Shown here in pieces: positions 1-15,927 of a DNA stretch of 17,043 bases. The position numbers and the translations under genes were made by a program. Within the stretch, counting starts at the first letter, position 1; every line of letters starts with the position of its first letter. The stretch covers positions 1 through 17,043 of IMG/VR virus record IMGVR_UViG_2802429225_000003; one strand, written 5' to 3'. Under the pieces are notes generated by a model. The model was given only the letters and a program-made list of their open reading frames with translations, was not told the origin of the DNA and made no database searches. This stretch comes from a virus. Taxonomy: Duplodnaviria > Heunggongvirae > Uroviricota > Caudoviricetes.

Positions 1-783
1 ATGGCGGCCGAGAAAAACGTGGAGCCCATCCATATTTCTACCGGCTTGGACTTCTGTTCGATCGCTACTAACGGCGAATCAAAGCGCAAGCGATATAACG
101 AAATTTGCACTAATTTGCAGTTCGACCATGTGGCTATCCTGCTCGATAAGCCGGGAGCAGGTACTCCGGAAGAAGGTGTCGGTATTTTTGTTAATGCCGA
201 CGGCAGCAAGTCAGAAATTGAATGCGTCAATCTGGCTGAGGCAAGTGAGCCGGATGAGGAATCAACGCTTTCCCTTATTTTTAACCAGCTAAAGGCGCTT
301 GTCGGCGCGAAAGAGGACCAAAACCCAATGAAAAATATGATTGCGAACGCGCTGAAGGCGGCGGGTAAAACCGTTGATGGTCTGAATGATGAACAGTTGC
401 TTCAGGCTTATAACTCACAGCTTGAAGAGACTGCAAAAAAGAAAAAGGAGGATGCAGAGAAAAAGGCAGAGGAGGAAGAAGAGAAGAAGAAAAAAGCTAA
501 TAACAGCGAGTCCATACCTGAGTGGTTCAAGCCGTTCGTAACGCAACTGGAATCTATCGCCATTAACTCGAAAAAAGACTCTGACAGCAAACGGTCGGCA
601 GTTAAAACAAAGTTTGGTCTGACAGACATTGCTGTAAACGCCCTTGATGGTGCTGCTCTTGATGAGATGTTTGCGCAAACCGTCACTGCCGCTCCTATTC
701 ACAGTGGCTTTCAACAATTCAACGTCAATCAGGACGACCAGTGGAAAGACTACGACCTGAATAAAATCGCGGAGGAAAAATAA
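1..783 (+). CDS. Head scaffolding / prohead protease-associated protein (possibly N-terminally truncated by the window edge)
   Basis: ORF abutting the window start, directly upstream of the decoration and capsid genes; contains a K/E-rich low-complexity segment ([21 protein letters not shown]) typical of scaffold-like proteins; stop overlaps the next start (TAATG at 781-785). Function inferred from position and composition only. Confidence 0.4.
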
Positions 784-1217
784 TGGCAAACGTAATTTAT
801 CGCGGTCCGGCATATCGTCAGCCGGATACTACAAACATACAGGTTACTGGTGCGTATAAACCAGGTGTGGCGGTCATCATTTCCGCTGGCAAGCTGCTTA
901 CGACCGGTTCCGCAAAAAGCGGACGCTGGCTGATTCTCGGTAATAACGAGTTTTTAGGCCAGGACATCGATACCGCCTACACGGCGCATGAAACAGCAAC
1001 CGCTTACCGGGTACGCGCTGAAGATGAATTTAATGTGCGCCTTGCCGCAGCTACTTACGGCGTCGGACAGGAGATTACCATTGGTGCGAACGGCGTATTT
1101 AAAGCGGCTGCGTCCGGAGATGTCGTTGTCGCTGCTTTTGACGAAAAAGCCAATCGCACTTTGTCCGCTGAGGGATTTGGCGACATCGTGATCCTCAATT
1201 CCGCTTACGTTAAATAA
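783..1217 (+). CDS. Head decoration protein (lambda gpD-like position)
   Basis: 144-aa ORF immediately upstream of the major capsid gene; GGAGGAAAA Shine-Dalgarno upstream; translationally coupled to the upstream ORF; Gly/Ala-rich small protein. Call based on synteny. Confidence 0.5.
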
Positions 1218-1225
1218 GGAAAATC

Positions 1226-2287
1226 ATGCTTAAATTTACACCACAACAGCAACAGCTAATCATTAACTCCCGACGCCACTGGGACATGGAGCAGGAGCAT
1301 ATGGCACTGCGGGCGGGATATAAGGTTAACAAGGTGGGCGGCGCCATTCTTGCGGCAAACTCAGGTGACGGTAATGTGCTTGGGTTAAATCAGGGGATTA
1401 TTGGTAACGCATCCACGTTACCAAAGGATGCCTGGGGGGCATGGGACCGCTCTTTTGTTGAAGTGCAACGCGATGTTCTTGCGGTGTTTAATGACCTGGC
1501 GGGAACTGTTTCGCAGACTGTACCACTGGGTAAAATCGTGCATTTCTTCCAGATGCTGTCAGATTCCGGTGATATCAATATCAGCCTGGACGGCCGCAGC
1601 AAAGCGAAAGTCGATCAGCCAGTTCACTCGTATGAAGGTACGCCGGTTCCAATCATCGATTCGGAGCTGGAATACGGATGGCGCCAGATGTTATCTGCTC
1701 AGACTGAGGGGTATTCACTCGACTCTGACGGAATCATGAACCATCAGCGAAAAATTGCTGAAAAACTGGAAGATCTGGCTATTAATGGCGATTCCACCAT
1801 CAATGTTGGCGGAGCGACGATTTACGGTCTTCGCACAGCGCCATATCGCGCCACAGGTACTCATGGTTATACGTTGAATGGCGCGTCTGGCGCGAATTGG
1901 TTAAGTGTAATTAAGGCGGTGGTAGCAGCCATCATGGCTAAGAATTTCCGTGCCCCGGTCACCATTTATCTGAATTACGATGACTGGTTCTACGCGAGCA
2001 CCAACGATTACACGGCGAGTTATCCGAAAACTATTCTGGCGCGTTTGATGGAAATTCCCAACGTCAAGGCAATCATCCCTGCGAGCAAAGTCCCGGTAAA
2101 TGAAGTACTGGCAATTGTTAAGCGCAGTGATGTTGTGAAAGTGTTGAACGGAATGCCTCCGACTACGCGCCCGAAATCTAGACAGAATCCGGAAGATAAC
2201 TACATCTTCACTGTCATGGCCGCAGCTTCCGTGCAGTACAAGCACGACGCAGAAGGCCAGGCTGGCTACGCTCAATTCACCAAATAA
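1226..2287 (+). CDS. Major capsid protein
   Basis: 353-aa ORF in the canonical position after the decoration protein; AAGGAAAA Shine-Dalgarno 7 nt upstream; size typical of lambda gpE-type major capsid proteins. Confidence 0.65.
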
Positions 2288-2296
2288 GGGATCACC

Positions 2297-2569
2297 ATGA
2301 CCGATAAAAAACGCTGGGTTTTAACCCATGACAGTCACGAACTGAAAAAAGGAGAAATCTATGAAGATGAATCACTCCCGGCCTGGCTCGCAGGAAAAGC
2401 CGTTCCTGCGGCTGATTCTGTCGGCCCTTCTGAAAATCTGGAAAAGGCGCACGAAGCGTTGATTCAGGAGAATGAATCACTACGCGCTCAGATTGCCGAA
2501 GTCACCAGCGAAAAAGACGCCCTGGCGAAAGAAAACGCCGACCTGAAAGCTAAACTCAAAAAGGCGTAA
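2297..2569 (+). CDS. Hypothetical head-associated protein, C-terminal coiled-coil
   Basis: 90-aa ORF with AAGGGA Shine-Dalgarno; C-terminal heptad-like charged segment (ENESLRAQIAEVTSEKDALAKENADLKAKLKKA). Confidence 0.45.
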   Translation: MTDKKRWVLTHDSHELKKGEIYEDESLPAWLAGKAVPAADSVGPSENLEKAHEALIQENESLRAQIAEVTSEKDALAKENADLKAKLKKA

Positions 2570-2571
2570 TT

Positions 2572-2955
2572 ATGGCTGACAGCGGAATCACCGCTGATCA
2601 GATTAACGTGTTCCTTGCCGAACTTGGCTACTCAATACCTGCCGCACTCCTTGATCCAATCCTCTGTCGCGTGAACTCAATAACCGATTGCCTTGAGGCG
2701 AACGGCTATGACTCATGTACGCAAACGCTCATTTTGATGTACGCCGCTGCGCTTATGTGTATGTCATCAGGAGCGAGACGGTTGAAATCACAAGGTGCTC
2801 CCAGCGGGGCGAGCCGGTCATTTGAATACGGTGAGGATGCCGCCATCTGGCTGCGGGAATCATTAGGTCAACTGGATACTGCCGGATGCTCGGCGGATCT
2901 GCCAATCAGTGCTGGTGATGGTGTCGGTTTTTTCCGGGTTGTGGGAGGGGGTTAA
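2572..2955 (+). CDS. Head-tail connector / head completion protein (gp6/FI-like position)
   Basis: 127-aa ORF between the capsid and tail genes, starting 3 nt after the previous stop. Call from synteny only. Confidence 0.4.
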   Translation: MADSGITADQINVFLAELGYSIPAALLDPILCRVNSITDCLEANGYDSCTQTLILMYAAALMCMSSGARRLKSQGAPSGASRSFEYGEDAAIWLRESLGQLDTAGCSADLPISAGDGVGFFRVVGGG

Positions 2956-3125
2956 TGACGTGGAAATCTGTAAAACATTCGCTCCCACGGTCATTTACTC
3001 GCGTCTGGGTAATGACCGATACCGGGCGCGAGACAACCGGTTACGTCAAAAGCGACGGTGAATGGTTTATCAACTGTCCAAAAATCCGCGCTACCGGTGC
3101 GATCGTGTTGCGATGGAGGGAATAA
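2955..3125 (+). CDS. Small hypothetical protein (56 aa), translationally coupled
   Basis: ATG at 2955 overlaps the upstream stop (TAATG) and is preceded by GGGAGGGGG; its stop overlaps the next ATG at 3125 (TAATG). Below the 60-aa cutoff of the supplied ORF track. Confidence 0.35.
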   Translation: MTWKSVKHSLPRSFTRVWVMTDTGRETTGYVKSDGEWFINCPKIRATGAIVLRWRE

Positions 3126-3478
3126 TGTCAGCTACGGCAAACTGGTCTTATACGGCAAAAGCGACCATCTGGAAGCGTAGTGGCGTGGATGAGTGGGGCA
3201 AGCCCGCATATTCTGCGCCCGTTGTTATTACCTGCGATTACGGCGGGGATAATAAATTACCCTCGCCATTGGTCAGTGATGCCGGACAGGAGGTGGTAAT
3301 TAAAAACACCATCTGGACTGAATACGCTGAAGCGAGTCTGGGGGATTTTGCTCTCATTGGTGAATCATCCGAGCCAGATCCGATTTCTGCCGGGGCCGAT
3401 GAAGTTAAGGCGGTTATCCGCTACGCAGATACATTTGACCGGGTGGCTGATGACTTCATGCTCGTAACGGGGGCGTAA
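3125..3478 (+). CDS. Head closure / head-tail joining protein
   Basis: ORF-track start at 3062 lacks a ribosome-binding site; the ATG at 3125 is preceded by GGAGGG and overlaps the upstream stop, so the shorter 117-aa form is preferred. Position between head and tail genes. Confidence 0.5.
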   Translation: MSATANWSYTAKATIWKRSGVDEWGKPAYSAPVVITCDYGGDNKLPSPLVSDAGQEVVIKNTIWTEYAEASLGDFALIGESSEPDPISAGADEVKAVIRYADTFDRVADDFMLVTGA

Positions 3479-3846
3479 TGGCTGCAAAAGTTAAAGGTAT
3501 TAACCGGGCAAAAAAACGGCTGGACCAACTGATAGACACAATCCAGGGGAAAAAAGCTGTTCGGGCTATTTATAAAGCGTTGTACATCGGAGGGGCGCAG
3601 GCTGCGCTGTATACCCCCATCGACACGTCAACATTAATCAACTCTCAGTTTCGCGATGTTCGTCCGGGGCAAAACCGGGTTACGGGCCGCGTTGGGTATT
3701 CAGCGGGCTACGCCATGTTCGTCCACGATCCGCAGGTGAAACAACAGTTCCGGCGCGCGACGGCCAAGAAGGAGTTCCTGAAGTTAGGGTTTGACGAAAT
3801 GCGCGACCAGATTGACAGAGCAGTAGCAGAGGAGATGCGCCTTTGA
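3478..3846 (+). CDS. HK97 gp10-family tail component (neck/tail completion)
   Basis: 122-aa ORF with a PIDTSTLINS motif resembling the conserved DTGxLxNS signature of HK97 gp10-like proteins; TAATG coupling to the upstream gene. Confidence 0.55.
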   Translation: MAAKVKGINRAKKRLDQLIDTIQGKKAVRAIYKALYIGGAQAALYTPIDTSTLINSQFRDVRPGQNRVTGRVGYSAGYAMFVHDPQVKQQFRRATAKKEFLKLGFDEMRDQIDRAVAEEMRL

Positions 3847-4223
3847 GTACGCCAGTATTCATTAAATTTCGCGACTGGCTGGTTGGTGCGGGGTTGGCAG
3901 ATGGCTACACCATTCAGCTTGCGCGCTGGCTGGAGCAACCATCTGACGGCGGCTTCACTCGCTACATTGTTTTTCAGCCGAATGGAGGTACAGCACGGCT
4001 GCAGGATTTAGGGGCTGACGATAATGTGCAGGTGGTACTGGTCAGTGGCAAGAACGATGCGCAGACAGTCGTTCAGCGAGCGCAGGATATTCTGGATTAC
4101 ATCACCGAACATCCTGATAACGATTGTCTGAACGGAGTTTTTAATCTGGGTGGTATTCCTGCTCCCGCCAGTACAGAAGAGGGCCGAACGATTATCTCTT
4201 TGCTGTTCCGCTGCACATCCTGA
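3843..4223 (+). CDS. Tail terminator / tail completion protein (gpU-like position)
   Basis: 126-aa ORF with an apparent TTG start overlapping the upstream stop, AGAGGAG 8 nt upstream; last gene before the major tail protein. Confidence 0.45.
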   Translation: MSTPVFIKFRDWLVGAGLADGYTIQLARWLEQPSDGGFTRYIVFQPNGGTARLQDLGADDNVQVVLVSGKNDAQTVVQRAQDILDYITEHPDNDCLNGVFNLGGIPAPASTEEGRTIISLLFRCTS

Positions 4224-4248
4224 TCAACAAACTCTCTCCAATATACAG

Positions 4249-4271
4249 GCTGCCCCCCGGGTGGCTTTTTT
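4249..4271 (+). terminator. Putative intrinsic terminator or attenuator upstream of the major tail gene
   Basis: GCUGCC / GGUGGC stem (6 bp including G-U pairs) with a 5-nt loop, followed directly by a T6 tract. Confidence 0.35.
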
Positions 4272-4297
4272 ATTTATGAATAATGAATGAGGTTTTT

Positions 4298-5047
4298 ATG
4301 GCTAGTTGCCAGAATGACTATGGAAAATTAATTGGGCGCAACGCAGTGCTTGAGGTTGTCGAGGGCTGTCCGGACACGGTGCCGCAGGAAGCCGACTGGA
4401 AGATCCTGGGGGCGATGACGACCAAATCGTTTGACCTGTCTCCAAACACCGTAACGTCAGAAGCAGACGACACGAAAGGCTTTGTTGAGGGACTGGTAAC
4501 CAGCGTGGACTTCACCATCTCTGGTGACGGCGAATGGCGTAAGCGTGATAAGCCTGGTGATTTCGGTCCGGCGTATATGACTCGCTATTACCTGCAGGAA
4601 ACAAAAGCGGGTCGCCAGCTGTCCGTGTGGGTTCGTCTGTCGTTTGCGACTATTACTATCACGGCGTACATGAATACCACAGCGTGGAGCGGAGAATTTG
4701 GCACTGGAGATATCGCGACATTCTCGGCTGAATTCAAAGTCGCAGATGCTGACAGCGTTACTGTAACGGATGACGGTGATATCGCTGTGACGAGTATAGC
4801 GGTTACGCCCAATTCACTCGGACTGAAAGTGGGAGAAAGCGGTACATTCAGCGTGAATTTTCTCCCTGCAAACGCGACAAACAAAAATTTCACCCTGGCT
4901 ACCGCCGCGCCTGCAATTGCTACAGCCAGCGTAGCAGCCTCCACTGTAACCGTAACGGCAGTAGCGGAGGGCTCGACTACGGTAACCGTGACCAGTGACG
5001 ACGGGAAATACACATCCAGTTGTGCAGTCACTGTAACGAGCGAGTGA
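4298..5047 (+). CDS. Major tail protein with C-terminal Ig-like (Big_2-type) domain
   Basis: Thr/Val/Ala-rich C-terminal segment (TVTVTAVAEGSTTVTVTSDDGK) typical of the Ig-like decoration domains on lambda gpV-type tail tube proteins; GAGG 6 nt upstream of the ATG at 4298 (an alternative ATG at 4283 lacks a Shine-Dalgarno). Confidence 0.7.
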   Translation: MASCQNDYGKLIGRNAVLEVVEGCPDTVPQEADWKILGAMTTKSFDLSPNTVTSEADDTKGFVEGLVTSVDFTISGDGEWRKRDKPGDFGPAYMTRYYLQETKAGRQLSVWVRLSFATITITAYMNTTAWSGEFGTGDIATFSAEFKVADADSVTVTDDGDIAVTSIAVTPNSLGLKVGESGTFSVNFLPANATNKNFTLATAAPAIATASVAASTVTVTAVAEGSTTVTVTSDDGKYTSSCAVTVTSE

Positions 5048-5051
5048 GAGT

Positions 5052-5708
5052 ATGGACGCACTTACAGATATCGGCGAAATGGTGATATCAACACGCGACG
5101 ATGATTTTTTTTTGCGTCCGTCTTTTATCGCTCTGACCCGAATCGGCTCTCCGGAAGAAATTGTGGAGGCGTACTCCATCATTAACGGCAGAGATTTTGG
5201 TGTACTGGTGCGCGCTGCGGAGTTGCAGGGAGTGCCGTCACCATGGCTGGTGGAATCTGTGAGCGGAACGGCATCCAGGCGAATGCTTAACGCCGCAATG
5301 ACGGTAATTCAGGCGTGTTGTGACAGGGATGCCACAACGCTGGTGGGGGAGCTGGCAGATGATTTGACTCGTCAACACGGCCTGATACCGGATACCGATA
5401 TGCTGATTATTGCGCGTGAATTACTGGAGCATGGCGTTATGGGCAAAGCGCCACTACGCAGATTGCAAAAGCACGAGAATCAGCAGACTTATACGGCAGG
5501 CTTTCGGGCTGTAGAGTATATCACCGCCGCACGTTCACACTTTGGACTTCCACGCGCCGAAGCGGAACAGCTCACAATGACCGCATTTCAGTTAATGCTT
5601 AAAGCGAAATACCCTGAAGAGAAAGGCTTCACCCGCGATGAGTACGATGGCATTATGGCTGCGCACGAGCAGCGGAAAATGCAAAAACTGGAAGCGATGA
5701 AGGCGTAG
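5052..5708 (+). CDS. Tail assembly chaperone (G/GT-like position)
   Basis: 218-aa ORF between the major tail and tape measure genes; GAGTGAGAG Shine-Dalgarno. No overlapping -1 frame extension of 60 aa or more is present downstream. Confidence 0.45.
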   Translation: MDALTDIGEMVISTRDDDFFLRPSFIALTRIGSPEEIVEAYSIINGRDFGVLVRAAELQGVPSPWLVESVSGTASRRMLNAAMTVIQACCDRDATTLVGELADDLTRQHGLIPDTDMLIIARELLEHGVMGKAPLRRLQKHENQQTYTAGFRAVEYITAARSHFGLPRAEAEQLTMTAFQLMLKAKYPEEKGFTRDEYDGIMAAHEQRKMQKLEAMKA

Positions 5709-5787
5709 TGGATTTATGTCAGAAGAATTTGCCGACGGCAGGTAATAGAAGAAAGCCCCGGAAACATTAAGCGTTCTGTAAGTAGCT

Positions 5788-5810
5788 AAATGTTTGCCGA
5801 GGCAACATTT
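5788..5810. promoter_or_regulatory. Imperfect inverted repeat (stem of about 10 bp) in an AT-rich intergenic region
   Basis: AAATGTTTGCC-GA-GGCAACATTT; lies downstream of both the + strand chaperone gene and the - strand acidic gene; no adjacent U-tract on either strand. Confidence 0.3.
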
Positions 5811-5901
5811 ATATGCTCAATACATTCAGATTAACCTTTTTCCCCCTCTTGGTTAAGGAGGCGACGGTTATTAAGTTACCAAAACAGGTGCTGCGCTTGT
5901 G

Positions 5902-6270
5902 TTATTCATGATGTGAATATTGCAAATCGTCAGCTTCACGAGATATATCAAAAAGGATATTTATCGCCAGAAGATATGCATTATCTACAACGCCATATGT
6001 CTCTGGAGTGATAGTGTTAGTATATCGATCGAAAGCATCTTCCAGGTAATCAAGCAAATCGTCATTTAAATACTCACTTCTCGGATCAAGCGCATGCAGA
6101 CCTTTAATACTCTCTCTATATTCGCTGAAGATTTTTGATATAAACGCTTGTTGTTCTGACCAATCATACAAATTAGCAATGGTAAGAGGCCTGTTAAGTT
6201 GTTCAAGTCGGGTGAGTTCACGAACCAACGACTGACAACCATCTCGAAGTTTTTCTGCTGTTAATGCCAT
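5902..6270 (-). CDS. Small acidic hypothetical protein (122 aa); antisense moron within the tail module
   Basis: Only convincing minus-strand gene in the window. The ATG at 6270-6268 is preceded by AGAGGG with a 6-nt spacer; the longer ORF-track form (to 6339) has no ribosome-binding site. Protein carries about 24 Asp/Glu against about 11 Lys/Arg. Flanked by AT-rich non-coding DNA. Confidence 0.55.
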   Translation of the reverse strand: MALTAEKLRDGCQSLVRELTRLEQLNRPLTIANLYDWSEQQAFISKIFSEYRESIKGLHALDPRSEYLNDDLLDYLEDAFDRYTNTITPETYGVVDNAYLLAINILFDISREADDLQYSHHE

Positions 6271-6412
6271 AATTAGCCCTCTGAGATTATTTATAGAAAG
6301 TAATATCTTACTATTTTTGCATTGAAGGCGGAGCTTCACCAGCCAGTTTTGTCAATTCAGTTATGGTGAGCGACTCCTGGCCTTCATGATGTATGACGAT
6401 GTAACAAGACCA

Positions 6413-6437
6413 CCTCGCTCCGGCGGGGTTTTTTATT
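6413..6437 (+). terminator. Hairpin plus T-tract just upstream of the tape measure start
   Basis: CCUCGC-UCCG-GCGGGG stem-loop (6 bp with one G-U pair, tetraloop) followed by TTTTTTATT, ending 15 nt before the tape measure ATG. Confidence 0.3.
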
Positions 6438-6451
6438 GCCCGGAGAATGAC

Positions 6452-9400
6452 ATGGCAGATGAGAAGAACGTCGGCAGTATCGTTTATGAAATAAGCGCAG
6501 ATGTCAAACCGCTGCTACAGGGCGGGAAGCAGGCCATTGATGCACTGGACAAACTGGATACTGCAGCCCAGCAGTCTGGAAGAGGGATGAGTAACCTGGA
6601 CCAGAGCGCGTCGCAAACCGGCACCACGTTTACTGAACTGGCCAGTTATGCTAACTCAATGGACAATCAGCTTCGTAAGCTGAACACCAGCGTGAGCGGT
6701 ATTGCGCGCGCGATGATGGAGGCTCGTACTGGTGTCAGCAGTACCACGAGTGAGTTAAATCGTGGCAATGCAGTAATTGAAGCACTCGGTAACCAGGTCG
6801 CAATACTTGAGGAAGCCCAGGAGAACGGAGCCAGAAGCGCAGCAGTTTTCGCCTCGCAGTTAAGAGCTGGTGCCAATGCTACGGAGGAAGAAAAGCGCAC
6901 TATCGCCGAATTGGCAGGCGTGTTTTATGATCTTAGCGCCGCCTCCGCTAAGGCTGCTAAATCAGCCGCATCGATGGCGGCCGCAACCCAACGTACAGAA
7001 TCATCAATATCCGGACTAGAGAAGGAAGTCTCTATTCTGAATACTGAGATGCAAACTGGTTCCAGAAGTGCTGCCATACTTGCTGCTCAGTTTAGTGCTG
7101 GTGAAGGTGCGTCTGACGCGCAAAAAGCCAAAATTGCACAGCTTGCAGGTGCTCTTTTTGATATGCGGGAGGCGCAAAAATCTGCATCTGCGGCATCAGC
7201 GGAGGCAGCTAAGCAACTTGCGCAGCAGGCAAATGAAGCGAACCGTATCAGCGGAATCACATCTGACCTTTCTAATCAAATAGCTATCCTGAGCGAACAG
7301 CAAACCAACGGAGCCCGCAGCGCAGCAATTCTGGCTGCTCAGTTACGAGCCGGAGCAAGTGCAACTGATGCCGATAAGCAGAAAATAGCCCAATTAACCG
7401 GGCAACTGTACGACATGAAGAACAGTGTCGATACAGGCACAAAAAGCCACGTCAACTGGAAAACCAGCGTACAGCAGGCCGGTTACCAGGTTCAGGACTT
7501 CATTGTTCAGGTGCAGGGTGGTCAGTCTGCTCTTGTTGCGCTCTCGCAGCAAGGATCTCAGCTTGCCGGGATTTTCGGCCCTGGCGGTGCGGTGGTTGGG
7601 GCTATAATTGCGCTTGGTTCTGTCCTCGCGGGCGTGTTGATTACGTCGCTGAATGGCGGCAAGAATGCCATGGTTGCGCTGAAAGAGGCTGCCGAGGCAA
7701 TGGACAAGGTGATCATCGTATCATCACAAGGTGTAGCCGCTCTTTCGGATAAATATGCGGCCCTTGCGCGTGTAAACGCTGACGTTGCAACGCTGCTCCG
7801 TAATCAGGCGCTGCTTGAGTATAACCAGGCCATTTCCAAGATACCGAAGGCCATAAGCGAAGCATCTGATGCTTTTATTACGTTCGGCGACCGTGCGATT
7901 GCCGCCGTTGGCGGGGCGTCGCCGAGCATCAAAAAATTCAACGCCGAGTTGTCCGCTCTCGGGGTCACTTCGAAGGAATGGGGAGAGGCAATTCAGCAGG
8001 CCAATAGTCAGGGGCAGTACGCATCTGGCATCGTAAACTCGCTGTCATCAACGGTGAATACACTTTCATCCCGACTTGGAATAAGCAAACAAGCTGCGTT
8101 TGATTTGGCAAGAGAATTGTCAAATCTGAGTAATAACCCATCACCGGAAGCACTTCAGGAGCTGGCGAAAAAACTCCAGGACATGAAGTCGTCATCCACT
8201 GACGGGCAGTCGGCCATCGCAGGACTGGCGGGTAAGCTTGTTGATCTGGCGAGAGAGGCAGCCAACGCGAAGATCAATGTAGACAGCCTGAATCAGTCCA
8301 CCGATAACCTGACCGCCGGACAGAAAAACCTTATCAAGCAGTCCGGACGTAACCTTGCCCTGTCAAAACTACAGGGTGAGGCTCGGGCCCGCCTGCAGGC
8401 ACAGTATGCCGCTGAAGATGCGGGATTTTCGAAGGACGATCCGCACGCCAAACAGATGGAGAACGACGCCGCAGCTACGTACAAAAATACGCAGGCGCAG
8501 AAAGATTTCCAGTCAACACATAAGAAAAGCATTTCACTGGCTGATTCTGTTGCTCAGAAGTTAGCGAATCTCAAGCAGCAATCGGAGCTCGCAGCCGACT
8601 CAACAAATGAGCTGAGCCGTGAGCAGGCCATGCTGACTGCGCAGCAGTCTCTTGGTAAAGGTGCAACCAAAGAGCAGATCGTATTAGCTGGTCAGTATGC
8701 AGCAAAAAAATGGGATACAGCCAACGCCATAAAAGCTGAAGCAGCGGCCCGAAAGCTCCTCCCTGAAGCAGCAGAGAACGCCAGTTACAAACAGGATGTT
8801 GAAGATCTGAATACCGCCCTGGCTGCGAAGAAAATAAGCCAGGAGCAGTACAATCAAACCTCGGAAAGACTGGCAGCAACACACCAGGCTAACCTCGCAA
8901 AAATTCAGTCGCAGCAGGTGGTAACGCCTCAACAGGAACTTGCGGCGCAGGTTGATCCCGTTCAGCAACTGGCGAATGAGAACGCAAAGAAACTGATACT
9001 CATTGATGAGTACAACAAGGCTGCGCTTGCAATCGTAAATGCAAGGCTGGCTAATGAGTCGCTAAGTCAGAGTGAAGCTGCTGCACAGTCAGCCGCTATT
9101 AACGCAAATACTCTTGCGTTAAAAAATACTCAGGAAACACAGTATGAGGAACAGAGGCTGGCAGCTCTGGAGCAGCAGTACCGTGCGCAATCAGTGTTGA
9201 ATGACTTTACGATGGATATGATCGACGCAGTCGGGCAACGAACCACCAACGCAATCACCGGCATTATTACCGGAACGCAGTCAGCAACAGATGCGCTACG
9301 AAATATGGCTTCAACAATTCTTGATCAGGCCGTTGGTGCTTTAGTTCAGATGGGTGTCCAGGCACTTAAAAACATGCTGATAGGGCAGTCAGCCAGTGCT

Positions 9401-9910
9401 GCTTCTGTTGCGCAGGCTGCAATAACAGGGCCTGCCATTGCCGCAGCATACAGCCCGGCAGCGGCGATGGTTTCGCTCGCATCATTTGGTGCAAATGCCG
9501 CAGCAGCTCAGACGGGGATCGCTTCAACAATGGGACTTACAAAAATGCTGTCCGTCGCTGGCGCTCGCTACAACGGTGGCCCGGTTTCCGCTAACTCAAT
9601 GTATCGCGTAGGTGAAAACGGCAAGCCAGAAATATTCCAGGCCAGCAACGGCAGTCAGTACATGATCCCCGGCGATAACGGACGAGTTGTCAGCAACAGA
9701 GATATGCAGGGCGGAAATAGTTCATCTCCTGTAAATATTGTCATTAACAATACGGCAGCGGGAACCGTTGTAGAAAATCAGGGTTTTAATCCGGACACGA
9801 AAACTATCACCCTCGCAGTGAACGAAGTCGCAAGGCAATTACGCTCGCATACGGGGGTAGTTGCTCGTGCATTGTCTGATAGCTGGAACACCACAGGAAA
9901 GGCACAATAA
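6452..9910 (+). CDS. Tail tape measure protein
   Basis: Longest ORF (about 1152 aa from the ATG at 6452, which has GGAGA 5 nt upstream; the upstream ATG at 6386 has none). Ala/Gln-rich helical composition, internal tandem repeats, a central hydrophobic Gly-rich segment (AGIFGPGGAVVGAIIALGSVLAGVLITSL) and placement before the tail-tip genes. Confidence 0.85.
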   Translation: MADEKNVGSIVYEISADVKPLLQGGKQAIDALDKLDTAAQQSGRGMSNLDQSASQTGTTFTELASYANSMDNQLRKLNTSVSGIARAMMEARTGVSSTTSELNRGNAVIEALGNQVAILEEAQENGARSAAVFASQLRAGANATEEEKRTIAELAGVFYDLSAASAKAAKSAASMAAATQRTESSISGLEKEVSILNTEMQTGSRSAAILAAQFSAGEGASDAQKAKIAQLAGALFDMREAQKSASAASAEAAKQLAQQANEANRISGITSDLSNQIAILSEQQTNGARSAAILAAQLRAGASATDADKQKIAQLTGQLYDMKNSVDTGTKSHVNWKTSVQQAGYQVQDFIVQVQGGQSALVALSQQGSQLAGIFGPGGAVVGAIIALGSVLAGVLITSLNGGKNAMVALKEAAEAMDKVIIVSSQGVAALSDKYAALARVNADVATLLRNQALLEYNQAISKIPKAISEASDAFITFGDRAIAAVGGASPSIKKFNAELSALGVTSKEWGEAIQQANSQGQYASGIVNSLSSTVNTLSSRLGISKQAAFDLARELSNLSNNPSPEALQELAKKLQDMKSSSTDGQSAIAGLAGKLVDLAREAANAKINVDSLNQSTDNLTAGQKNLIKQSGRNLALSKLQGEARARLQAQYAAEDAGFSKDDPHAKQMENDAAATYKNTQAQKDFQSTHKKSISLADSVAQKLANLKQQSELAADSTNELSREQAMLTAQQSLGKGATKEQIVLAGQYAAKKWDTANAIKAEAAARKLLPEAAENASYKQDVEDLNTALAAKKISQEQYNQTSERLAATHQANLAKIQSQQVVTPQQELAAQVDPVQQLANENAKKLILIDEYNKAALAIVNARLANESLSQSEAAAQSAAINANTLALKNTQETQYEEQRLAALEQQYRAQSVLNDFTMDMIDAVGQRTTNAITGIITGTQSATDALRNMASTILDQAVGALVQMGVQALKNMLIGQSASAASVAQAAITGPAIAAAYSPAAAMVSLASFGANAAAAQTGIASTMGLTKMLSVAGARYNGGPVSANSMYRVGENGKPEIFQASNGSQYMIPGDNGRVVSNRDMQGGNSSSPVNIVINNTAAGTVVENQGFNPDTKTITLAVNEVARQLRSHTGVVARALSDSWNTTGKAQ
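6750..7440 (+). repeat. Three in-frame tandem repeats of about 77-84 codons inside the tape measure gene
   Basis: Recurring peptide units NGARSAAVFASQLRAGANATEEEKRTIAELAGVFYDL / TGSRSAAILAAQFSAGEGASDAQKAKIAQLAGALFDM / NGARSAAILAAQLRAGASATDADKQKIAQLTGQLYDM, with cores starting near 6824, 7055 and 7307. Confidence 0.6.
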
Positions 9911-10383
9911 TGGCAACGGAAATTAAATGGCCGTTAGGTCTTCACACAATTCAAAAATCCAGTAAAGCGCGCAATCAGTCGGCAGCTTTTCAGTTATCCG
10001 ATCCACGCAGTGGTCCGCCATATCGCAAGCGGCTAAGTGATGACGTGCCGGTTATCTGGGACGTCACATTTATCTTCGCTGGAGACAATGCAACCATATT
10101 CTGGTCGTGGTTTGAAAACGCCATTGACCGTGGGCGCAAAAACTTCATTCTACCCATTGCAACAGAGTTTGGGATTGTTGATCACGAAGTAATGTTTCTG
10201 CCTGGCTCACTGCTACCAGCCAGCGAAGCTGGTACGGTTTTCACGTATACGGCGCAAATCCTTGCCCGCAAACTTGTTATCCCGGCGGAGTTCCCTGACG
10301 ACATCTGGATTGATCCGGATATCTGGAAGTATCGCAGCATTCTCGATCCGGCTGTTAACTGGTACTGGCCAAATAATCCATAG
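9910..10383 (+). CDS. Minor tail protein (tail tip assembly)
   Basis: 157-aa ORF whose ATG overlaps the tape measure stop (ATAATG); first gene after the tape measure, as for lambda gpM or the distal-tail protein of other long-tailed phages. Confidence 0.5.
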   Translation: MATEIKWPLGLHTIQKSSKARNQSAAFQLSDPRSGPPYRKRLSDDVPVIWDVTFIFAGDNATIFWSWFENAIDRGRKNFILPIATEFGIVDHEVMFLPGSLLPASEAGTVFTYTAQILARKLVIPAEFPDDIWIDPDIWKYRSILDPAVNWYWPNNP

Positions 10384-10388
10384 GAAGC

Positions 10389-10889
10389 ATGATGCCTGTC
10401 ACTGATGAGCAGCGGGCGTACTGGAGCCAGAAAAATCCAGCAGCAGAATTTGATACTGTAACATTTACGCACCCGGCCTTTAAGGATCCGATACGACTGG
10501 TCGCCAATGTCTTCAGCGACATGACATTCAACGGTAATACCTACCGCGCCTGCTCAATGGAAATTGACAAGCCCGAACAAGGGAAAGACCCGGTTAGTAG
10601 CGTCAGCGTGAAGTTTAGCCGTCCGCTGGTGGGCGATGAATTTAAGGCAATCATACGGGCGATGGACCCGTTCGACTGGCTGGCGGCACCTATCACTCTA
10701 TGTTTGCAGCAATTCACAGAGGATGACCCGAATAACCCCATTCAAAATTGGTCGCTTTACGTGACCGAAGACGGTATCCGTATTAGCCGAGACACATTGC
10801 AGGTGCAGGCATCCGACGATAACCCGATGATCCTCAATATGAGCCAAGTCTACGATCTCGATCGCTACCCCAGCCTTACATACATATAG
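10389..10889 (+). CDS. Minor tail protein (tail tip assembly)
   Basis: 166-aa ORF, second gene after the tape measure, with a short intergenic gap and an AGGAAG Shine-Dalgarno. Confidence 0.5.
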   Translation: MMPVTDEQRAYWSQKNPAAEFDTVTFTHPAFKDPIRLVANVFSDMTFNGNTYRACSMEIDKPEQGKDPVSSVSVKFSRPLVGDEFKAIIRAMDPFDWLAAPITLCLQQFTEDDPNNPIQNWSLYVTEDGIRISRDTLQVQASDDNPMILNMSQVYDLDRYPSLTYI

Positions 10890-10897
10890 GTTCCTTA

Positions 10898-11326
10898 ATG
10901 ACAAAAGATGAATTTATCCGGCGCGCCGTTGGCCTGCCGTGGGTTGATCGCGCCTGTAGCTGGCGAGCGATGGACTGTTGGGGCGTGGTGGTTATGTATT
11001 TTCGCTATGTCTACGGCGAGGAATTGCCCTGTGTTGAGGGGTATTCCAGCGGCGAAATCAAAATCACCGACGGATTTCAACGCCAAATCCAGAGTGGTAA
11101 ATGGCGGCGCGTTGAATCCCCCGAGGGTGACTGTATTGCATTTATGTTGTTTAAGCAGGGCGTGGCCTCTCACGTTGGCGTGGTTGTGGATGGGCAATAT
11201 GTTTTACACGCCGCAGGTGATGCGCAACATGAGGGGCAGGTGCGCTGCGACCGACTTGATACATTCAGACGGTTTCATCGAGGGGAAATGATTTTTTATG
11301 CCTGGGAGGGGGGCCGATGCTTGTAA
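10898..11326 (+). CDS. NlpC/P60-family tail-associated peptidase (gpK-like)
   Basis: 142-aa protein with a Cys-containing motif (AMDCWGVVV) and a downstream His-rich segment (SHVGVVVDGQYVLHAAG) consistent with the NlpC/P60 Cys-His catalytic core; position matches the lambda K / gene transfer agent g14 slot. Confidence 0.6.
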   Translation: MTKDEFIRRAVGLPWVDRACSWRAMDCWGVVVMYFRYVYGEELPCVEGYSSGEIKITDGFQRQIQSGKWRRVESPEGDCIAFMLFKQGVASHVGVVVDGQYVLHAAGDAQHEGQVRCDRLDTFRRFHRGEMIFYAWEGGRCL

Positions 11327-13832
11327 TTTATCGCGATCCACGCGGTTTGCTGGTAAGGATGTTTATGAGTTCGATTATTCACTTTCCCTGCAAGATAATA
11401 TCGCAAAGCACTTTCCCGGCGGGCTTGATGCCAGCACGACGCTGATTACATGGAACGGTTGCAAAATTAACCCACTTGAAGTTGACTTGTCGCGCCTCGC
11501 GACGCCGCTGGATCACCTGGAAATCATCATCCGACAGCAGGGGATTGGCACCATGCTGATTGTGGCCATCGTGGCGGCAGTTGCTACGGTTGTGCTGATG
11601 CCTAAGCCCACAATCCCCAACTCCAGTGGTTCGCAGAAAGATTCACCTAATAACGATCTCACAGGACAAACCAACGTCGCACGGGTATATCAGGCAGTTC
11701 CGGATATTTACGGTAAGATCCGCGCCTTTCCCGACCTTGTGGCTCCCTCCTTATCTGAATATATAAACAACGTTAAAAACGTAACCGAGGTGTTGTGCGT
11801 TGGGATTGGCGATTATGAATTTGAAAACGTCAAATATGCAGACACATTACTGAGCACCATTGGTGGCGCGTCGTATGAAATATTTAACCCCGGCGACACC
11901 ATTCCAATACTGTATGACGCAGCTGAATCACCGGACGTTGACGGCCAGGAAATTACACCGCCAAACCTGGGCGACACGGTTCTGTATAGCGCGACGACAA
12001 ACAATATTGTTGCTGTTGAGTATGCGAAGGGCAGTAAGGCAATGTCTTTCACGGTACCTAAAAGCGCTGATTTTCAATATTTTGTCGATAAATCAAAGCC
12101 GATTAATGTGAGACTGACGGTAAATCTTGAATATTCAGTTGTCAGCGGCAACGGTAAGACAACAACGAAGAAAGGGGAGTTTCAGGTCAGTGGACAGATC
12201 GTCAGTATTGGTCAGTCAGATAATGGAGATATTATCGCTCCAGAGAACTATTACGATATTGGCATAGATAACGCAACGGTAAGTAACGACTTCCCGGCTG
12301 ATGGCGTCATTACAGGTGATTACCTGAAAATTGAGGATATGGAGGCGTTATTTGTCGGGCCGTTCATCATGGCTTCTGATTCTGATGAAATCTGGTACAA
12401 CGTCATTTTTCAGCGCGGACTGGACGGAACCGCAAATTTAAACGCTGAGTGGTGGCGGGTAGACAAAGACAATAATGTGATTGAGGGGACAGAGGAATCA
12501 GATTCTTTTTCCTATAGCAATGATACGTATGAAGGGCAGTATTTCACTCGCAAGATTATCCCGAAAGCCGGGCGTGGGCGCTACGCATTCCGTATTTCTC
12601 GCACTAATAACGGCAGCGATCAGCTTACTGACCAGGCCAAACTGGAAGAAGTTTATTCAGTTCAGGTTCGACGAAATGTTCGGGTGCAGGACACATTAAT
12701 TCGCTGCGTTACTCCAGCAACGGAACAGGCAACCGGCATTAAAGACCGAAAATTTAATGCTGAGGTGACACGGAAAACGATTACATGGAACGGATCTGGG
12801 GTGGTAGGTGCGTTGACCCCAAGCCGTGATTTTGCTGATGCAGTACTTCATTCGTTTGTCAGGATTGCAGGTCGCGCTGCCAGTGAGCTGGATCTTGATG
12901 CGTTGTACAGTATCAGTCGATCCCTTAAAAACAAGAATGAGCGCATGGGATGGTTCGATTTCTCATTCGATGACAAAGACATCTCACTCGGTCAGCGATT
13001 GCAAACCATATGTAATGCAGCGCGTGTTACGGTATTTCGTGACGGGCTGAAGTGGCGTTTTGTGCGTGACGAGAAGAAAAGCATTATCTCTGCGCAATTT
13101 GATGCCCGTAATCTGGCGAACGTCGATGATGGCGGTACGCTTCAGTATAAGGGACACCTGCCGACAAGTTACGATGGGATTGAACTGGAATGGGTGGACG
13201 CCACGGATACAAATGATGATGGCACAGATAAAAAGGCGTACATCCGATTACGCATTGACGCGTCTCGCAAACGTATTGTGGAAGGCACTTCAAATCGCCC
13301 CTATAAAATCCAGCTTGCCGGGTGCCGCAACAAAGACCAGGCGATGAATCGTGCGCAGCTTGAAGCGAGGCGACTTATCTATCAGCGACTGAGTGTGGAG
13401 GATACGGCACTTAACGATGCGTGGATGCTGTCGCTTGGTGATCGGGTGCGCTGGGCTGACGTTTACGATGAGGCGATTGCCAGCGGTGAAATATTGTCAA
13501 TTGACGGTAATGTGTTCACCACTTCTGAAACTCTCATTTTTGAAAGTGGGGAAACATACAAAGTCAGTATCACAGATCAGTACGGATACCCTTCAGCATG
13601 GATAAGCGCATTGCCAGTAAATGGTAATAAAAGCGCCTTCAGTACTGATTTCAGCAAGGCTTATACCGCCGACGGCATTACTTCCATGCTTGGCAGTCGT
13701 TTCATTATGACGCCTTCAGTTGCCAGTGAACCTATGGATTTCACGCTTACTGAGAAAGGGCCTGGAAGTGACCCTTCACAAACCAGGATCTCGCTCACTC
13801 AATATGATGAACGAGTGTACGAATACGATTAA
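11298..13832 (+). CDS. Tail tip / host-specificity protein (J-like), possibly with an I-like N-terminal region
   Basis: 844-aa ORF overlapping the upstream gene by 29 nt; hydrophobic helix (GIGTMLIVAIVAAVATVVLMP, about nt 11541-11603) followed by a YGKIR motif reminiscent of the C-terminus of tail assembly protein I family members; large protein in the slot before the tailspike. Confidence 0.55.
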   Translation: MPGRGADACNLSRSTRFAGKDVYEFDYSLSLQDNIAKHFPGGLDASTTLITWNGCKINPLEVDLSRLATPLDHLEIIIRQQGIGTMLIVAIVAAVATVVLMPKPTIPNSSGSQKDSPNNDLTGQTNVARVYQAVPDIYGKIRAFPDLVAPSLSEYINNVKNVTEVLCVGIGDYEFENVKYADTLLSTIGGASYEIFNPGDTIPILYDAAESPDVDGQEITPPNLGDTVLYSATTNNIVAVEYAKGSKAMSFTVPKSADFQYFVDKSKPINVRLTVNLEYSVVSGNGKTTTKKGEFQVSGQIVSIGQSDNGDIIAPENYYDIGIDNATVSNDFPADGVITGDYLKIEDMEALFVGPFIMASDSDEIWYNVIFQRGLDGTANLNAEWWRVDKDNNVIEGTEESDSFSYSNDTYEGQYFTRKIIPKAGRGRYAFRISRTNNGSDQLTDQAKLEEVYSVQVRRNVRVQDTLIRCVTPATEQATGIKDRKFNAEVTRKTITWNGSGVVGALTPSRDFADAVLHSFVRIAGRAASELDLDALYSISRSLKNKNERMGWFDFSFDDKDISLGQRLQTICNAARVTVFRDGLKWRFVRDEKKSIISAQFDARNLANVDDGGTLQYKGHLPTSYDGIELEWVDATDTNDDGTDKKAYIRLRIDASRKRIVEGTSNRPYKIQLAGCRNKDQAMNRAQLEARRLIYQRLSVEDTALNDAWMLSLGDRVRWADVYDEAIASGEILSIDGNVFTTSETLIFESGETYKVSITDQYGYPSAWISALPVNGNKSAFSTDFSKAYTADGITSMLGSRFIMTPSVASEPMDFTLTEKGPGSDPSQTRISLTQYDERVYEYD

Positions 13833-13855
13833 CAGATAACTCCTGTTCACCAATG

Positions 13856-13878
13856 CTCGCCGCTGTGCGGGTTTTTTT
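13856..13878 (+). terminator. Putative intrinsic terminator after the tail-tip gene
   Basis: CUCGC / GCGGG stem (5 bp) with a 6-nt loop, followed by a T7 tract. Confidence 0.4.
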
Positions 13879-13889
13879 ATGGAAAAATT

Positions 13890-15864
13890 ATGGCCACACG
13901 TTACAACACCAATAATCCTGTGCCGTCCCATGCGGTTAAAGATTACAGCAACAACGCCCAAATCATTGATGAACTTGTTCATAAACAGGAATCAACAACA
14001 AAAGACCGGTTCGGAAAAGATCTGAAAACCTGGTACGGAATTAATAAAGAGGCGACCGACGCAACGAACGAGTTCATCGAAAACGGTCAGAATGCAATAA
14101 ATACGTTTAACCAGAATGGCAAGGATGCTATCGATAAATTTAGCAACGATAGCAATGCTGCGATTAATGATTTCGAGAGTGATGCGAATCAGGCGATAAT
14201 TAATTACGGTTATATTCTGGTTGACTCATTTCAGATCGGTGCTGAGATCACGCTCCGGAATCAGGCTCTTCACTGGCCTGCGCCAGAGGGTGACGGAGAA
14301 TATTATCGCTGGGACGGTGAATTGCCGAAGACGGTTCCAGCCGGAGCTACGCCGGAAACGTCAGGTGGGGTTGGGCCGGGAGCGTGGATTGACGTTGGTG
14401 ATGCTTCGCTGCGTAGCGATCTGGCGTCTGGAGGTAAGGCTGCATTGGTTGGCTATGGCAGCGCGACTGTAGAGGGTGCTCTTGACGATCTTTATGCCGC
14501 TAACGCTGCTCAGGGGGGGAAACTGGTTTTGATACTGTTGGCCACTTTCTTAATCTGACTGAATTACGTGCGCAGGCGCCTGCTTCAGCCGGAATGATTG
14601 TATATGTTGTTTCAGCAGCCAGCTTGTCACATGCAGAAACTCATCTTGGCGGCGGTTTTTTTGAGTCAGTCGATAATGTCCAGGCATGGCCTGATGATGG
14701 TGGTATTGTAATTAAACCAGACACAGGGTCGATTGTGTGGCGACGCATTAACTTCACCTCATACGATATGCAATTCTGGGGTGTCAAGCCGGACGGGGCT
14801 ACAGATAATGCGGAGGCAATTACGAAGGCCACACAGTATGCAAAGATGAATAAAGTTATCCTGGATGCACCCGCAGGGAATATTAACACAAGCGAAATGG
14901 TCCCTATTTATAATAATATGGGGATTCGAGGCCACGGAAAGGCTGAAGCTACGGTTTTCTATAAAACAACTAACAATATTTTTAATTATAAAAAAATGGA
15001 ACCACAGTTTTATCTGTGGACGCATTGGTAGGTTTTGTTCCAAATAATTGGGATCTTGCTGACTCTTCAATGGATTCATTTTGCTCTAACGGCAGAATTG
15101 AGAGCTGTATGTTTCGTAGACAGGGACTTGACCAATCAAACGTTGACACCTACAGAAATTATTATGGGTTGTTTTTTGGGAAGGCTGCTGCACCTGTAGT
15201 TCGGCAATGTTCATTTGAATGCGCATATATTGGATGTTATTCATACTGTCCATTCTCAGGAGTCATGGAAATGGTTGCATTCCCTCAATATGCAGGGAAG
15301 GGGTATGGTGGGATCGTTTTTGAGGATTTTCGTGGCGGTCAGATAAGGGTAATTGGTACATCAATGGACATGCGTCTTGTTCAAATAAGCGGTTATCAGT
15401 TTGGTTTTATTTTGTCAGGAATGCAATATACAACAATGACAAACTGTACTGCAGAAAATTGCACTCCAATGGCTGGAGAAACGACTTGCTTTGCATTTAG
15501 CTTCATGAACCCTTATTGTATTGTCATGAATACGTGCGCAACAGAAGAAGTAAAGGGCGGGCAGTTAAGAGTAATAGTTCAAGGAGATCCGTCTTTCAGA
15601 CCATCTTTAATTATAAATGGATTTTTGCCTATAGGTCAGAAAAACCCAATTTCAACAACCCCAATCATTTATGTAGACAATGCGGGCCTTGCAGAAACCA
15701 GCGTGATAATTAACGGAGGTGATTGGGCTATAAGTCCATCAGCAACCAACCTTGTCGCACCATCGGCTAGTGGTGGTGGCACGAAGGTCAGAATGATAGG
15801 AGTCAATGGCTCACCTAAATCAATTTGGACCATCTCCGCTAACGCCGATGTGCAGGAGTTTTGA
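13890..15864 (+). pseudogene. Tailspike / depolymerase-like receptor-binding protein, interrupted by two frameshifts at homopolymer tracts (or intact if the tracts are under-called)
   Basis: Three consecutive ORFs in three frames (13890..14558, 14594..15031, 15016..15864). Adding one G to the G7 run at 14513-14519 and one A to the A7 run at 14990-14996 gives one continuous protein of about 658 aa. It has an Asn-rich repeat N-terminus, an LRSDLASGGKAALVGYG segment, a beta-helix-like start (FWGVKPDGATDNAEAITKATQYA) and a Cys-rich C-terminal part. Confidence 0.6.
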
Positions 15865-15927
15865 TTCCCTGTCATTGACATAGCATCTATATGAAACTAC
15901 CCTGCCAGAAACTACACATATTTTGGC

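Follow-up and report, generated by a model that had tools for sequence, protein, structure and literature searches.

A small acidic gene antisense to the tail operon of an Escherichia siphovirus prophage, placed in the Hfx_cass2 family on sequence and predicted fold

Why would a prophage whose head and tail genes all run in one direction carry a single small gene that points the other way? The question is raised by a 17,043-nucleotide (nt) stretch of viral DNA (the window; positions 1 to 17,043 of the IMG/VR record IMGVR_UViG_2802429225_000003), which holds the head-tail module of a siphovirus prophage. The plus-strand genes lie end to end with a single large gap in the series, at 5709-6451, and this gap contains the sole antisense gene of the window, which encodes an acidic protein of 122 amino acids (aa). 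On four public contigs with an identical protein (L001-L004), all other called genes are likewise on the opposite strand. The identical protein is annotated as ‘hypothetical protein [Escherichia]’ or ‘E. marmotae’. The evidence set out below identifies the gene as a moron in a known type of cargo slot and its product, by sequence and predicted fold, as a new member of a structurally known, functionally orphan family, not as a categorical novelty. A protective role in the lysogen is tentatively favoured.

A conserved gene of the Hfx_cass2 family

A first-pass annotation, made from the letters alone, had picked out a minus-strand open reading frame (ORF) of 122 aa, and this frame is present at 5902-6270, beginning with the ATG at 6270. 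All of the aligned homologues (23/23) start at the same ATG, and given this unanimity a GTG start at 6339, which would give the 145-aa extension in the ORF list, was dropped. The Shine-Dalgarno sequence AGAGGG with its 6-nt spacer reads as described, at 6282-6277, and the gene calls confirm that every other gene is on the plus strand and tightly packed. The protein has 23 Asp and Glu, 11 Lys and Arg, and 3 His residues and an isoelectric point of 4.5; it is strongly acidic, as had been claimed, with a computed net charge of -12 in place of the estimated -13 or so. The AT-rich DNA said to bracket the gene is also there: the guanine-cytosine (GC) fraction is 0.37-0.43 over 5700-6400 and 0.50-0.58 outside, and that of the gene itself is 0.383 against about 52% in its flanks.

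A protein search across 5.8 billion proteins finds 26 clusters of homologues, nearly all 116 aa long and 52-68% identical, from Salmonella, Enterobacter, Serratia, Cedecea, Klebsiella, Yersinia, and Acerihabitans. Profile searching gives about 47 clusters in Enterobacterales at 46-68% identity, and an exhaustive hidden Markov model search of 1.84 billion representatives yields only 18 at E <= 0.001. The family is small but real. The identical protein was read on 24 contigs, with 25 collection blocks listed in the index, and a second cluster member is on about 20 further contigs. Over eight loci, nonsynonymous divergence (pN) is 0.17-0.34 and synonymous divergence (pS) 0.72-0.95, the synonymous sites being saturated. 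The first-pass annotation had staked its proposal on purifying selection across homologous loci, and pN far below pS shows such selection. Moreover, the frame of the window copy is intact and full length, with all family-invariant residues retained. The acidic ORF is a real gene under selection.

Several collections hold nothing like it. A tblastn search of INPHARED (50,697 phage records) returns no match to the protein at E <= 1, a tblastn search of the PLSDB plasmids finds no family copy, Foldseek against BFVD gives no match, and a Pfam scan of 19 family members produces scattered weak matches only.

Kinship comes from the PDB, where a sequence search gives one strong match, 3FXH, ‘Integron gene cassette protein HFX_CASS2’ (profile hmmsearch E 3.2e-21, profile positions 9-113 against chain positions 28-131; single-sequence phmmer E 1.8e-13). 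Hfx_cass2 is soluble and has a new all-alpha fold of six helices, and helices 1 and 6 hold its subunits together in a stable homodimer (Sureshan et al. 2013, PMC3548836). The protein is markedly acidic on its exposed face, which bears a 19-Å acidic stripe and a hydrophobic crevice whose gate is formed by Glu47 and Asp60; in 2013 its function was not known and it had no homologues at that time (PMC3548836). The predicted fold of the acidic protein is likewise compact, all-alpha, and made of six helices, and sequence and predicted fold together place the protein in the Hfx_cass2 family. Transmembrane and signal segments are lacking, and the protein is predicted to be cytoplasmic and soluble.

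Residue correspondences, obtained by laying the published numbering (PMC3548836) by hand on the single-sequence 3FXH alignment, suggest how much of the Hfx_cass2 surface is shared. The dimer interface residues L97, I100, L104, and L107 correspond to L100, I103, F107, and S110, three of the four hydrophobic, and the acidic protein is probably a homodimer too. Seven residues of the acidic stripe and crevice were mapped in this way. Three are matched by acidic residues exactly (E34, E37, and E74 by D36, E39, and E77, the last family-invariant) and two by an adjacent one (E47 falls on S49, next to E50, and D60 on P63, next to D62), whereas stripe residues D30 and E39 are A32 and Q41 in the window copy. 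The family consensus retains D32, E39, E41, and E77, and the family-invariant residues include four arginines (R17, R21, R82, and R111).

The slot before the tape measure gene

The acidic gene lies between a gene of the DUF6246 family and the tail tape measure gene. The upstream neighbour had been labelled a tail assembly chaperone; it matches DUF6246 and PHROG 791, whose function is not known, and is a chaperone by position only. The tape measure label holds (PHROG 1538/1107), with a different start. The longest ORF, from 6386, would translate through a conserved hairpin, and the start is most likely the ATG at 6452, as called on the four contigs with the identical protein and as preceded by the Shine-Dalgarno sequence GGAG.

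To see how relatives are arranged at this junction, 80 viral contigs encoding DUF6246 relatives were surveyed, and the distance to the tape measure gene was resolved in 52. In 17 of these the spacing is -11 to +49 nt, and in the remaining 35 it is 375-2,679 bp; in 14 further loci, cargo pushes the tape measure gene beyond 4 kb. The gaps have a GC fraction of 0.39-0.47 against 0.48-0.55 overall. Their cargo falls into 81 protein clusters and includes Arc-like repressors with P22-type antirepressors, lipoproteins, membrane proteins, a YafO toxin, a SocA/Panacea antitoxin, and DUF2513-like proteins; 72 of 86 cargo ORFs point the same way as the late genes. The junction of the DUF6246 and tape measure genes is a hot spot for cargo.

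In the window, homology to relatives stops at about 5647-5668 and restarts exactly at 6412. The DNA between is extra DNA of deviant base composition, inserted between genes that are adjacent in relatives, two traits of a moron as Juhala and Hendrix used the term. The acidic gene is a moron in a known type of slot. Comparison with related prophages, which the first-pass annotation had asked for, turns out as expected of a moron slot, with the flanking genes adjacent in 17 of 52; the remark that the placement is unusual does not survive, as the slot is a typical hot spot with cargo in 35 of the 52 resolved relatives.

The right-hand edge is a hairpin followed by a T-run. The same element, over 31-47 nt, carries a terminator annotation in ES18, HK225, and mEp390, and the ES18 copy is 93.6% identical to the window over 47 nt. 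It stands directly before the tape measure gene in nearly all relatives, cargo-free ones included, at 75-100% identity. In cargo-free relatives it is the whole of the 49-nt spacer and is 100% identical, against about 45-48% identity for the flanking proteins. Copies also occur in HK225 (after cor), Klebsiella phages, a Pseudomonas phage, and a few E. coli chromosomes. The hairpin is, on this distribution, part of the phage backbone or a module boundary and not of the moron. As a candidate for the terminator of the moron itself, the stem at 6412-6429 was rejected, being on the plus strand and also present in relatives without cargo.

The left flank has a history of its own. In P1-like phages, the DNA immediately before mokW is similar to positions 5745-5843 (blastn, 74% over 99 nt, E 4e-4), and this region of P1 is a bona fide Rfam sok match (114.9 bits). 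In the window, the Rfam sok score is 17.9 bits (E 0.17), below the gathering score of 59; this sub-threshold match is accepted as a remnant because of the blastn match and the alignment to P1-like hok/sok loci. The hok Shine-Dalgarno sequence AAGGAGG is retained at 5855-5861. At 5870, however, ATT stands in place of the hok start ATG, and the frame at 5870-5911 has 13 codons (IKLPKQVLRLCYS and a stop), whereas P1 Hok is intact at 51 aa. The left flank is, to judge from these matches, a hok/sok remnant and not an intact locus.

The hok stub overlaps the 3' end of the acidic gene, which cuts it short; the last six codons of the acidic gene are hok-derived and replace the usual end of the family at residue 116. 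The cargo gene would thus have lost its own stop and terminator on being joined to an earlier hok/sok cargo, and the remnant points to repeated turnover of cargo in the slot. The inverted repeat noticed earlier near 5788-5810 is part of the remnant and has perfect 8-nt arms; its hairpin has a folding free energy of -11 kcal/mol (z -2.7) and no T-run after it. A 146-nt fold of the remnant reaches -40.5 kcal/mol (z -2.7). Read on the minus strand, a long hairpin of the remnant is followed by CUUUCUUCU, as in the aligned P1 locus, and the pair may serve as a minus-strand terminator.

Table 1. Features of the cargo slot and its flanks in the window
Feature	Position	Strand	Basis
Left flanking phage gene, DUF6246 / PHROG 791, 218 aa	5052..5708	+	Domain and PHROG match; homology to relatives stops about 5647-5668
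Decayed hok/sok-type type I toxin-antitoxin locus	5709..5901	+	sok/hok-leader homologue about 5745-5869
Inverted repeats in hok/sok remnant	5762..5811		Arms 5787-5794/5804-5811; alternative pairing 5762-5772/5785-5795
Acidic cargo gene (coding sequence, 122 aa, Hfx_cass2 / PDB 3FXH family by sequence and predicted fold)	5902..6270	-	ORF listing and homologue alignment
Shine-Dalgarno sequence AGAGGG	6277..6282	-	6-nt spacer to ATG at 6270; read from sequence
AT-rich 5' flank of acidic gene, presumed promoter region	6283..6411	-	Base composition; no similarity to any phage record
Conserved terminator-like hairpin and T-run, 35 nt	6412..6446	+	Stem 6412-6429; right-hand edge of cargo slot
Right flanking phage gene, tail tape measure protein, 1152 aa	6452..9910	+	PHROG 1538/1107; Shine-Dalgarno GGAG 6442-6445

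Farther along the window, at 13890-17043, genes co-oriented with the tail genes encode a Tail_spike_N protein, a Phage_tail_beta-like protein, and an Acyl_transf_3 acyltransferase (Pfam, on the identical contigs). The acyltransferase gene is probably an O-antigen-modifying lysogenic conversion gene.

Orientation and settings of other family copies

The family gene is antisense to its surroundings in 29 of 29 viral contigs in IMG/VR, which span 26 distinct immediate neighbourhoods, and 90% of the flanking coding bases are on the other strand. It is likewise antisense in prophages of Salmonella, Enterobacter, Serratia, Yersinia, and E. coli MB07152. A repressor gene often comes with it. In 12 loci (L116-L123, L128, L133, L136, L140), a gene for a helix-turn-helix (HTH) protein with a Peptidase_S24 domain is directly upstream and co-oriented, with a 9-nt gap; in Yersinia (L013/L014), an HTH-S24 gene ends 83 nt before the family gene. 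These HTH-S24 proteins are 258-278 aa long. Arc-like genes (81-118 aa) take the upstream position in L132 and L135, with a stop/start overlap in L135. P22-type antirepressor genes often adjoin the family gene, and in the Yersinia loci the adjoining divergent genes are Bro-N, KilA-N, ANT, or P22-type antirepressor genes by Pfam. These modules of repressor and family gene resemble secondary immunity regions of the immI type set within tail operons.

The loci themselves are diverse. A Serratia prophage carries the family gene in the same DUF6246/tape-measure slot. In other prophages it is found between baseplate genes (a Salmonella myovirus), between tail genes (an Enterobacter myovirus), and between the K and I tail genes (a lambda-like Yersinia prophage). 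E. coli MB07152, the sole match in 5,426 complete E. coli genomes, has it between the Q and holin genes. An Acerihabitans copy is in a primase island, and a Polycyclovorans copy is beside GmrSD and HEPN genes. In S. rubidaea (L017/L018, about 5100-7750), the family gene stands alone in a small island between flagellar operons, with the fliT side on one hand and the fliE side on the other. Beside this copy, 41 nt of the 3' end of the DUF6246 gene survive as a scar with unchanged relative orientation, a sign that a prophage may have decayed here and kept its cargo gene.

The MB07152 locus (L106) has a further feature. Its family gene lies between Q and a plus-strand terminator, AGAACCTCGCCGAAATGGCGGGGTTTT, at 7467-7493. 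The stem of this terminator resembles the window hairpin (ACCTCGC...GCGGGGTTTT) and may represent the same element family at another cargo slot.

More distant relatives, about 30% identical, are single-gene integron cassettes with attC on both sides. In L111, the sites are GCCTAAC...GTTAGGC upstream and GCCTAAC...GTTATGT downstream, and L025 is similar (GCCTAAC...GTTAGGC-type). The cassettes that adjoin the family cassette vary between contigs. In the window, no convincing R''/R' pair of an attC site is seen by eye around 5700-6450. Four metagenomic integron arrays with the family gene (L109-L112) also hold Imm33-like and Rap1a cassettes, the latter of type VI secretion system (T6SS) immunity, and across these different arrays a 77-aa Cys-rich cassette stays beside the family cassette.

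Neighbour genes of family copies vary from locus to locus. Because the distant relatives are single-gene cassettes and neighbours differ between loci, the family protein is taken, on genomic context, to have no obligatory partner gene and to work as a stand-alone protein. The DNA flanks of the family gene are not conserved between host loci either, and no mobile unit larger than the ORF can be defined. Downstream genes of 157-177 aa (DUF2513-like, DUF4236) were considered as obligate partners and rejected, as neither the window nor the cassette copies have them. A protein of 154-165 aa also recurs beside the family gene, at L010 8394-8867, L125 565-1062, L127 5394-5867, and L137 1624-2088. A longer homologue in the same cluster has a sub-threshold DUF2513 match, and the proteins of L125 and L137 have no Pfam match; no such gene is in the window.

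Possible functions and known systems

The reading we favour, which taken as a full chain we hold to be somewhat less than an even bet, is that the family encodes a stand-alone binding protein, expressed in the lysogen, that protects against an invader, most plausibly a superinfecting phage. The gene would have been acquired horizontally as single-gene cargo into the DUF6246/tape-measure slot of an Escherichia (E. marmotae-type) siphovirus prophage. It is antisense to the late operon and therefore needs a promoter of its own; in the lysogen, transcription might start there or at the promoter of a repressor gene. During lytic growth, late transcription running through the converging gene could damp its expression by transcriptional interference. 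A soluble homodimer would most likely bind and sequester a positively charged or hydrophobic ligand stoichiometrically in its acidic groove, and the lysogen would be shielded. A protective role is favoured because of this architecture, of phage precedents (sieA, taiEcA, and Tab, compared below), and of phage resistance conferred by integron cassettes. About one-third of integron cassettes without known function gave phage resistance in one screen (bioRxiv 10.1101/2024.07.02.601719).

Several observations weigh against this proposal. A scan of the window for sigma-70 promoters finds none upstream of the acidic gene; a perfect -35-like TTGACA is present at 6355-6350 on the minus strand, without a matching -10. 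Promoter scans of three other family copies do no better than shuffled sequence. No canonical terminator of the gene is found in the window, just the sok-derived hairpin and U-rich tract, whereas other family copies bear clear intrinsic terminators. The window copy has no repressor partner of the kind seen elsewhere. No model in Pfam, PHROGs, or NCBIfam matches the acidic protein, and among the defence models of PADLOC-DB 2.0 no family reaches even E <= 1. General considerations point the same way. Cargo hot spots gather many kinds of genes, and location alone gives no function; most known exclusion proteins are membrane proteins, unlike this soluble one; and small acidic dimers are equally typical of anti-defence or immunity proteins.

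Two rival functions start from that last point. An orphan immunity or antitoxin-like protein could neutralize a basic toxin, e.g. a nuclease delivered through T6SS, contact-dependent inhibition, or bacteriocins, or one from a toxin-antitoxin system, and so shield the lysogen from competitors. An acidic, helical, probably dimeric, stand-alone protein suits such a role, as do the Imm33-like and Rap1a cassettes in the same integron arrays and the YafO toxin and SocA/Panacea antitoxin genes among the slot cargo. However, no toxin gene is consistently adjacent in any family context, and there is no consistent Pfam immunity or antitoxin match (one of 19 members is weakly RelB-like, E 0.035), which leaves this explanation quite unlikely. 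Alternatively, the protein may be an anti-defence factor, either an acidic DNA mimic or another inhibitor of host restriction, CRISPR, or other immunity. This fits a small, acidic, probably dimeric protein without enzymatic motifs that is encoded by a single gene (PMC3548836), and one relative is in an island beside GmrSD and HEPN genes. The DNA-mimic version, which the first-pass annotation had put forward, finds no support: the fold matches neither Ocr nor ArdA, and the charge is modest and poorly conserved (-12 over 122 aa here, -3 to -11 in homologues, with isoelectric points up to 5.9). Several invariant residues are moreover arginines. We consider anti-defence activity decidedly improbable.

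A different possibility is that the protein modulates the switch of its own prophage, binding a repressor, an antirepressor, or RecA with DinI-like logic to tune induction. Repeated coupling to HTH-S24 and Arc-like repressor genes beside P22-type antirepressors argues for it, as does an antisense dinI moron in HK225. On the other hand, no such module is near the window copy, the integron cassette copies, or the S. rubidaea chromosomal copy, and the association may merely reflect common cargo slots; a role in the switch is accordingly rated very unlikely. Finally, the ORF could be non-functional, a chance frame or a decaying remnant. The window copy has lost the native stop and terminator of the family and runs six codons into hok-derived sequence, and no promoter is predicted. 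Yet the frame is intact and full length with every family-invariant residue kept, the protein recurs unchanged on 24 contigs with a second cluster member on about 20 more, and pN is far below pS. That the gene does nothing is hardly credible.

Returning to the protective reading, a more general form of it would make the Hfx_cass2 fold an unrecognized class of stand-alone, lysogen-expressed protective factor, acting in phage exclusion or in toxin neutralization by sequestration and common to integron arrays and prophage late-operon slots. The antisense, repressor-coupled placement would then be an off-switch in the phage's own lytic growth. This generalization is possible and, in our estimate, unlikely. 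Whatever its fate, the orphan structure 3FXH can now be placed in a family that lives in prophage slots and integron arrays and follows a regulatory pattern, its gene being always antisense and often preceded by a lysogeny repressor gene. A 116-aa single-gene candidate is simple to assay for phage exclusion, toxin immunity, or anti-defence, and the DUF6246/tape-measure slot with its conserved hairpin boundary is useful for mining prophage accessory genes. Should the function prove ordinary, a clean moron annotation is still gained.

Among known systems, the closest in sequence is Hfx_cass2 itself. It comes from an integron cassette, whereas the window copy lies within the tail operon of a prophage and shows no convincing attC; the window copy further differs in belonging to the enterobacterial sub-branch of 116 aa, with a six-residue C-terminal extension. 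Ocr and ArdA share small size, acidity, helical content, and a probable dimeric state with the window protein and differ from it in fold, in a much higher charge density, and in genomic placement.

Other systems resemble the window gene in position. Genes 19 and 20 of ES18, annotated as ‘possible morons’ before the tape measure gene, occupy the same or an equivalent slot; in contrast to the window gene, they are co-oriented with the late genes, and their proteins are unrelated to the window protein. Directly upstream of the tape measure gene of HK97, again the same or an equivalent slot, is gp15, reportedly a moron according to papers that refer to Cumby et al. 2012. The immI region of P22, in which mnt, orf59a, and the exclusion gene sieA run antisense to the late operon, shares with family loci an accessory gene placed after a repressor gene (in P22, that of a maintenance repressor) and near an antirepressor gene. 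There is no sequence relationship between the two, and the window copy differs in having no repressor or antirepressor neighbours. SieA is also a membrane protein, unlike the soluble window protein.

Functional precedents are found in TaiEcA and Tab, the products of defence morons in late operons that are constitutive in the lysogen and block tail assembly of competing phages (PMC11364771; PMC10884400). Homology to either was sought by tblastn against the 50,697 INPHARED records, with phi80 and JBD26 presumed included, and none appears at E <= 1. A counter-defence gene such as those beside Tai and Tab is likewise not seen, as there is no plus-strand ORF of at least 50 aa in 5709-6385, only the hok remnant. 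JBD26 Tab is, similarly to the window protein, a small protein, and it has no recognizable domain (PMC10884400). The phi80 gene taiEcA is antisense like the window gene: this defence gene runs against the Q operon, and its expression, seen in lysogens, falls when Q is expressed (PMC11364771).
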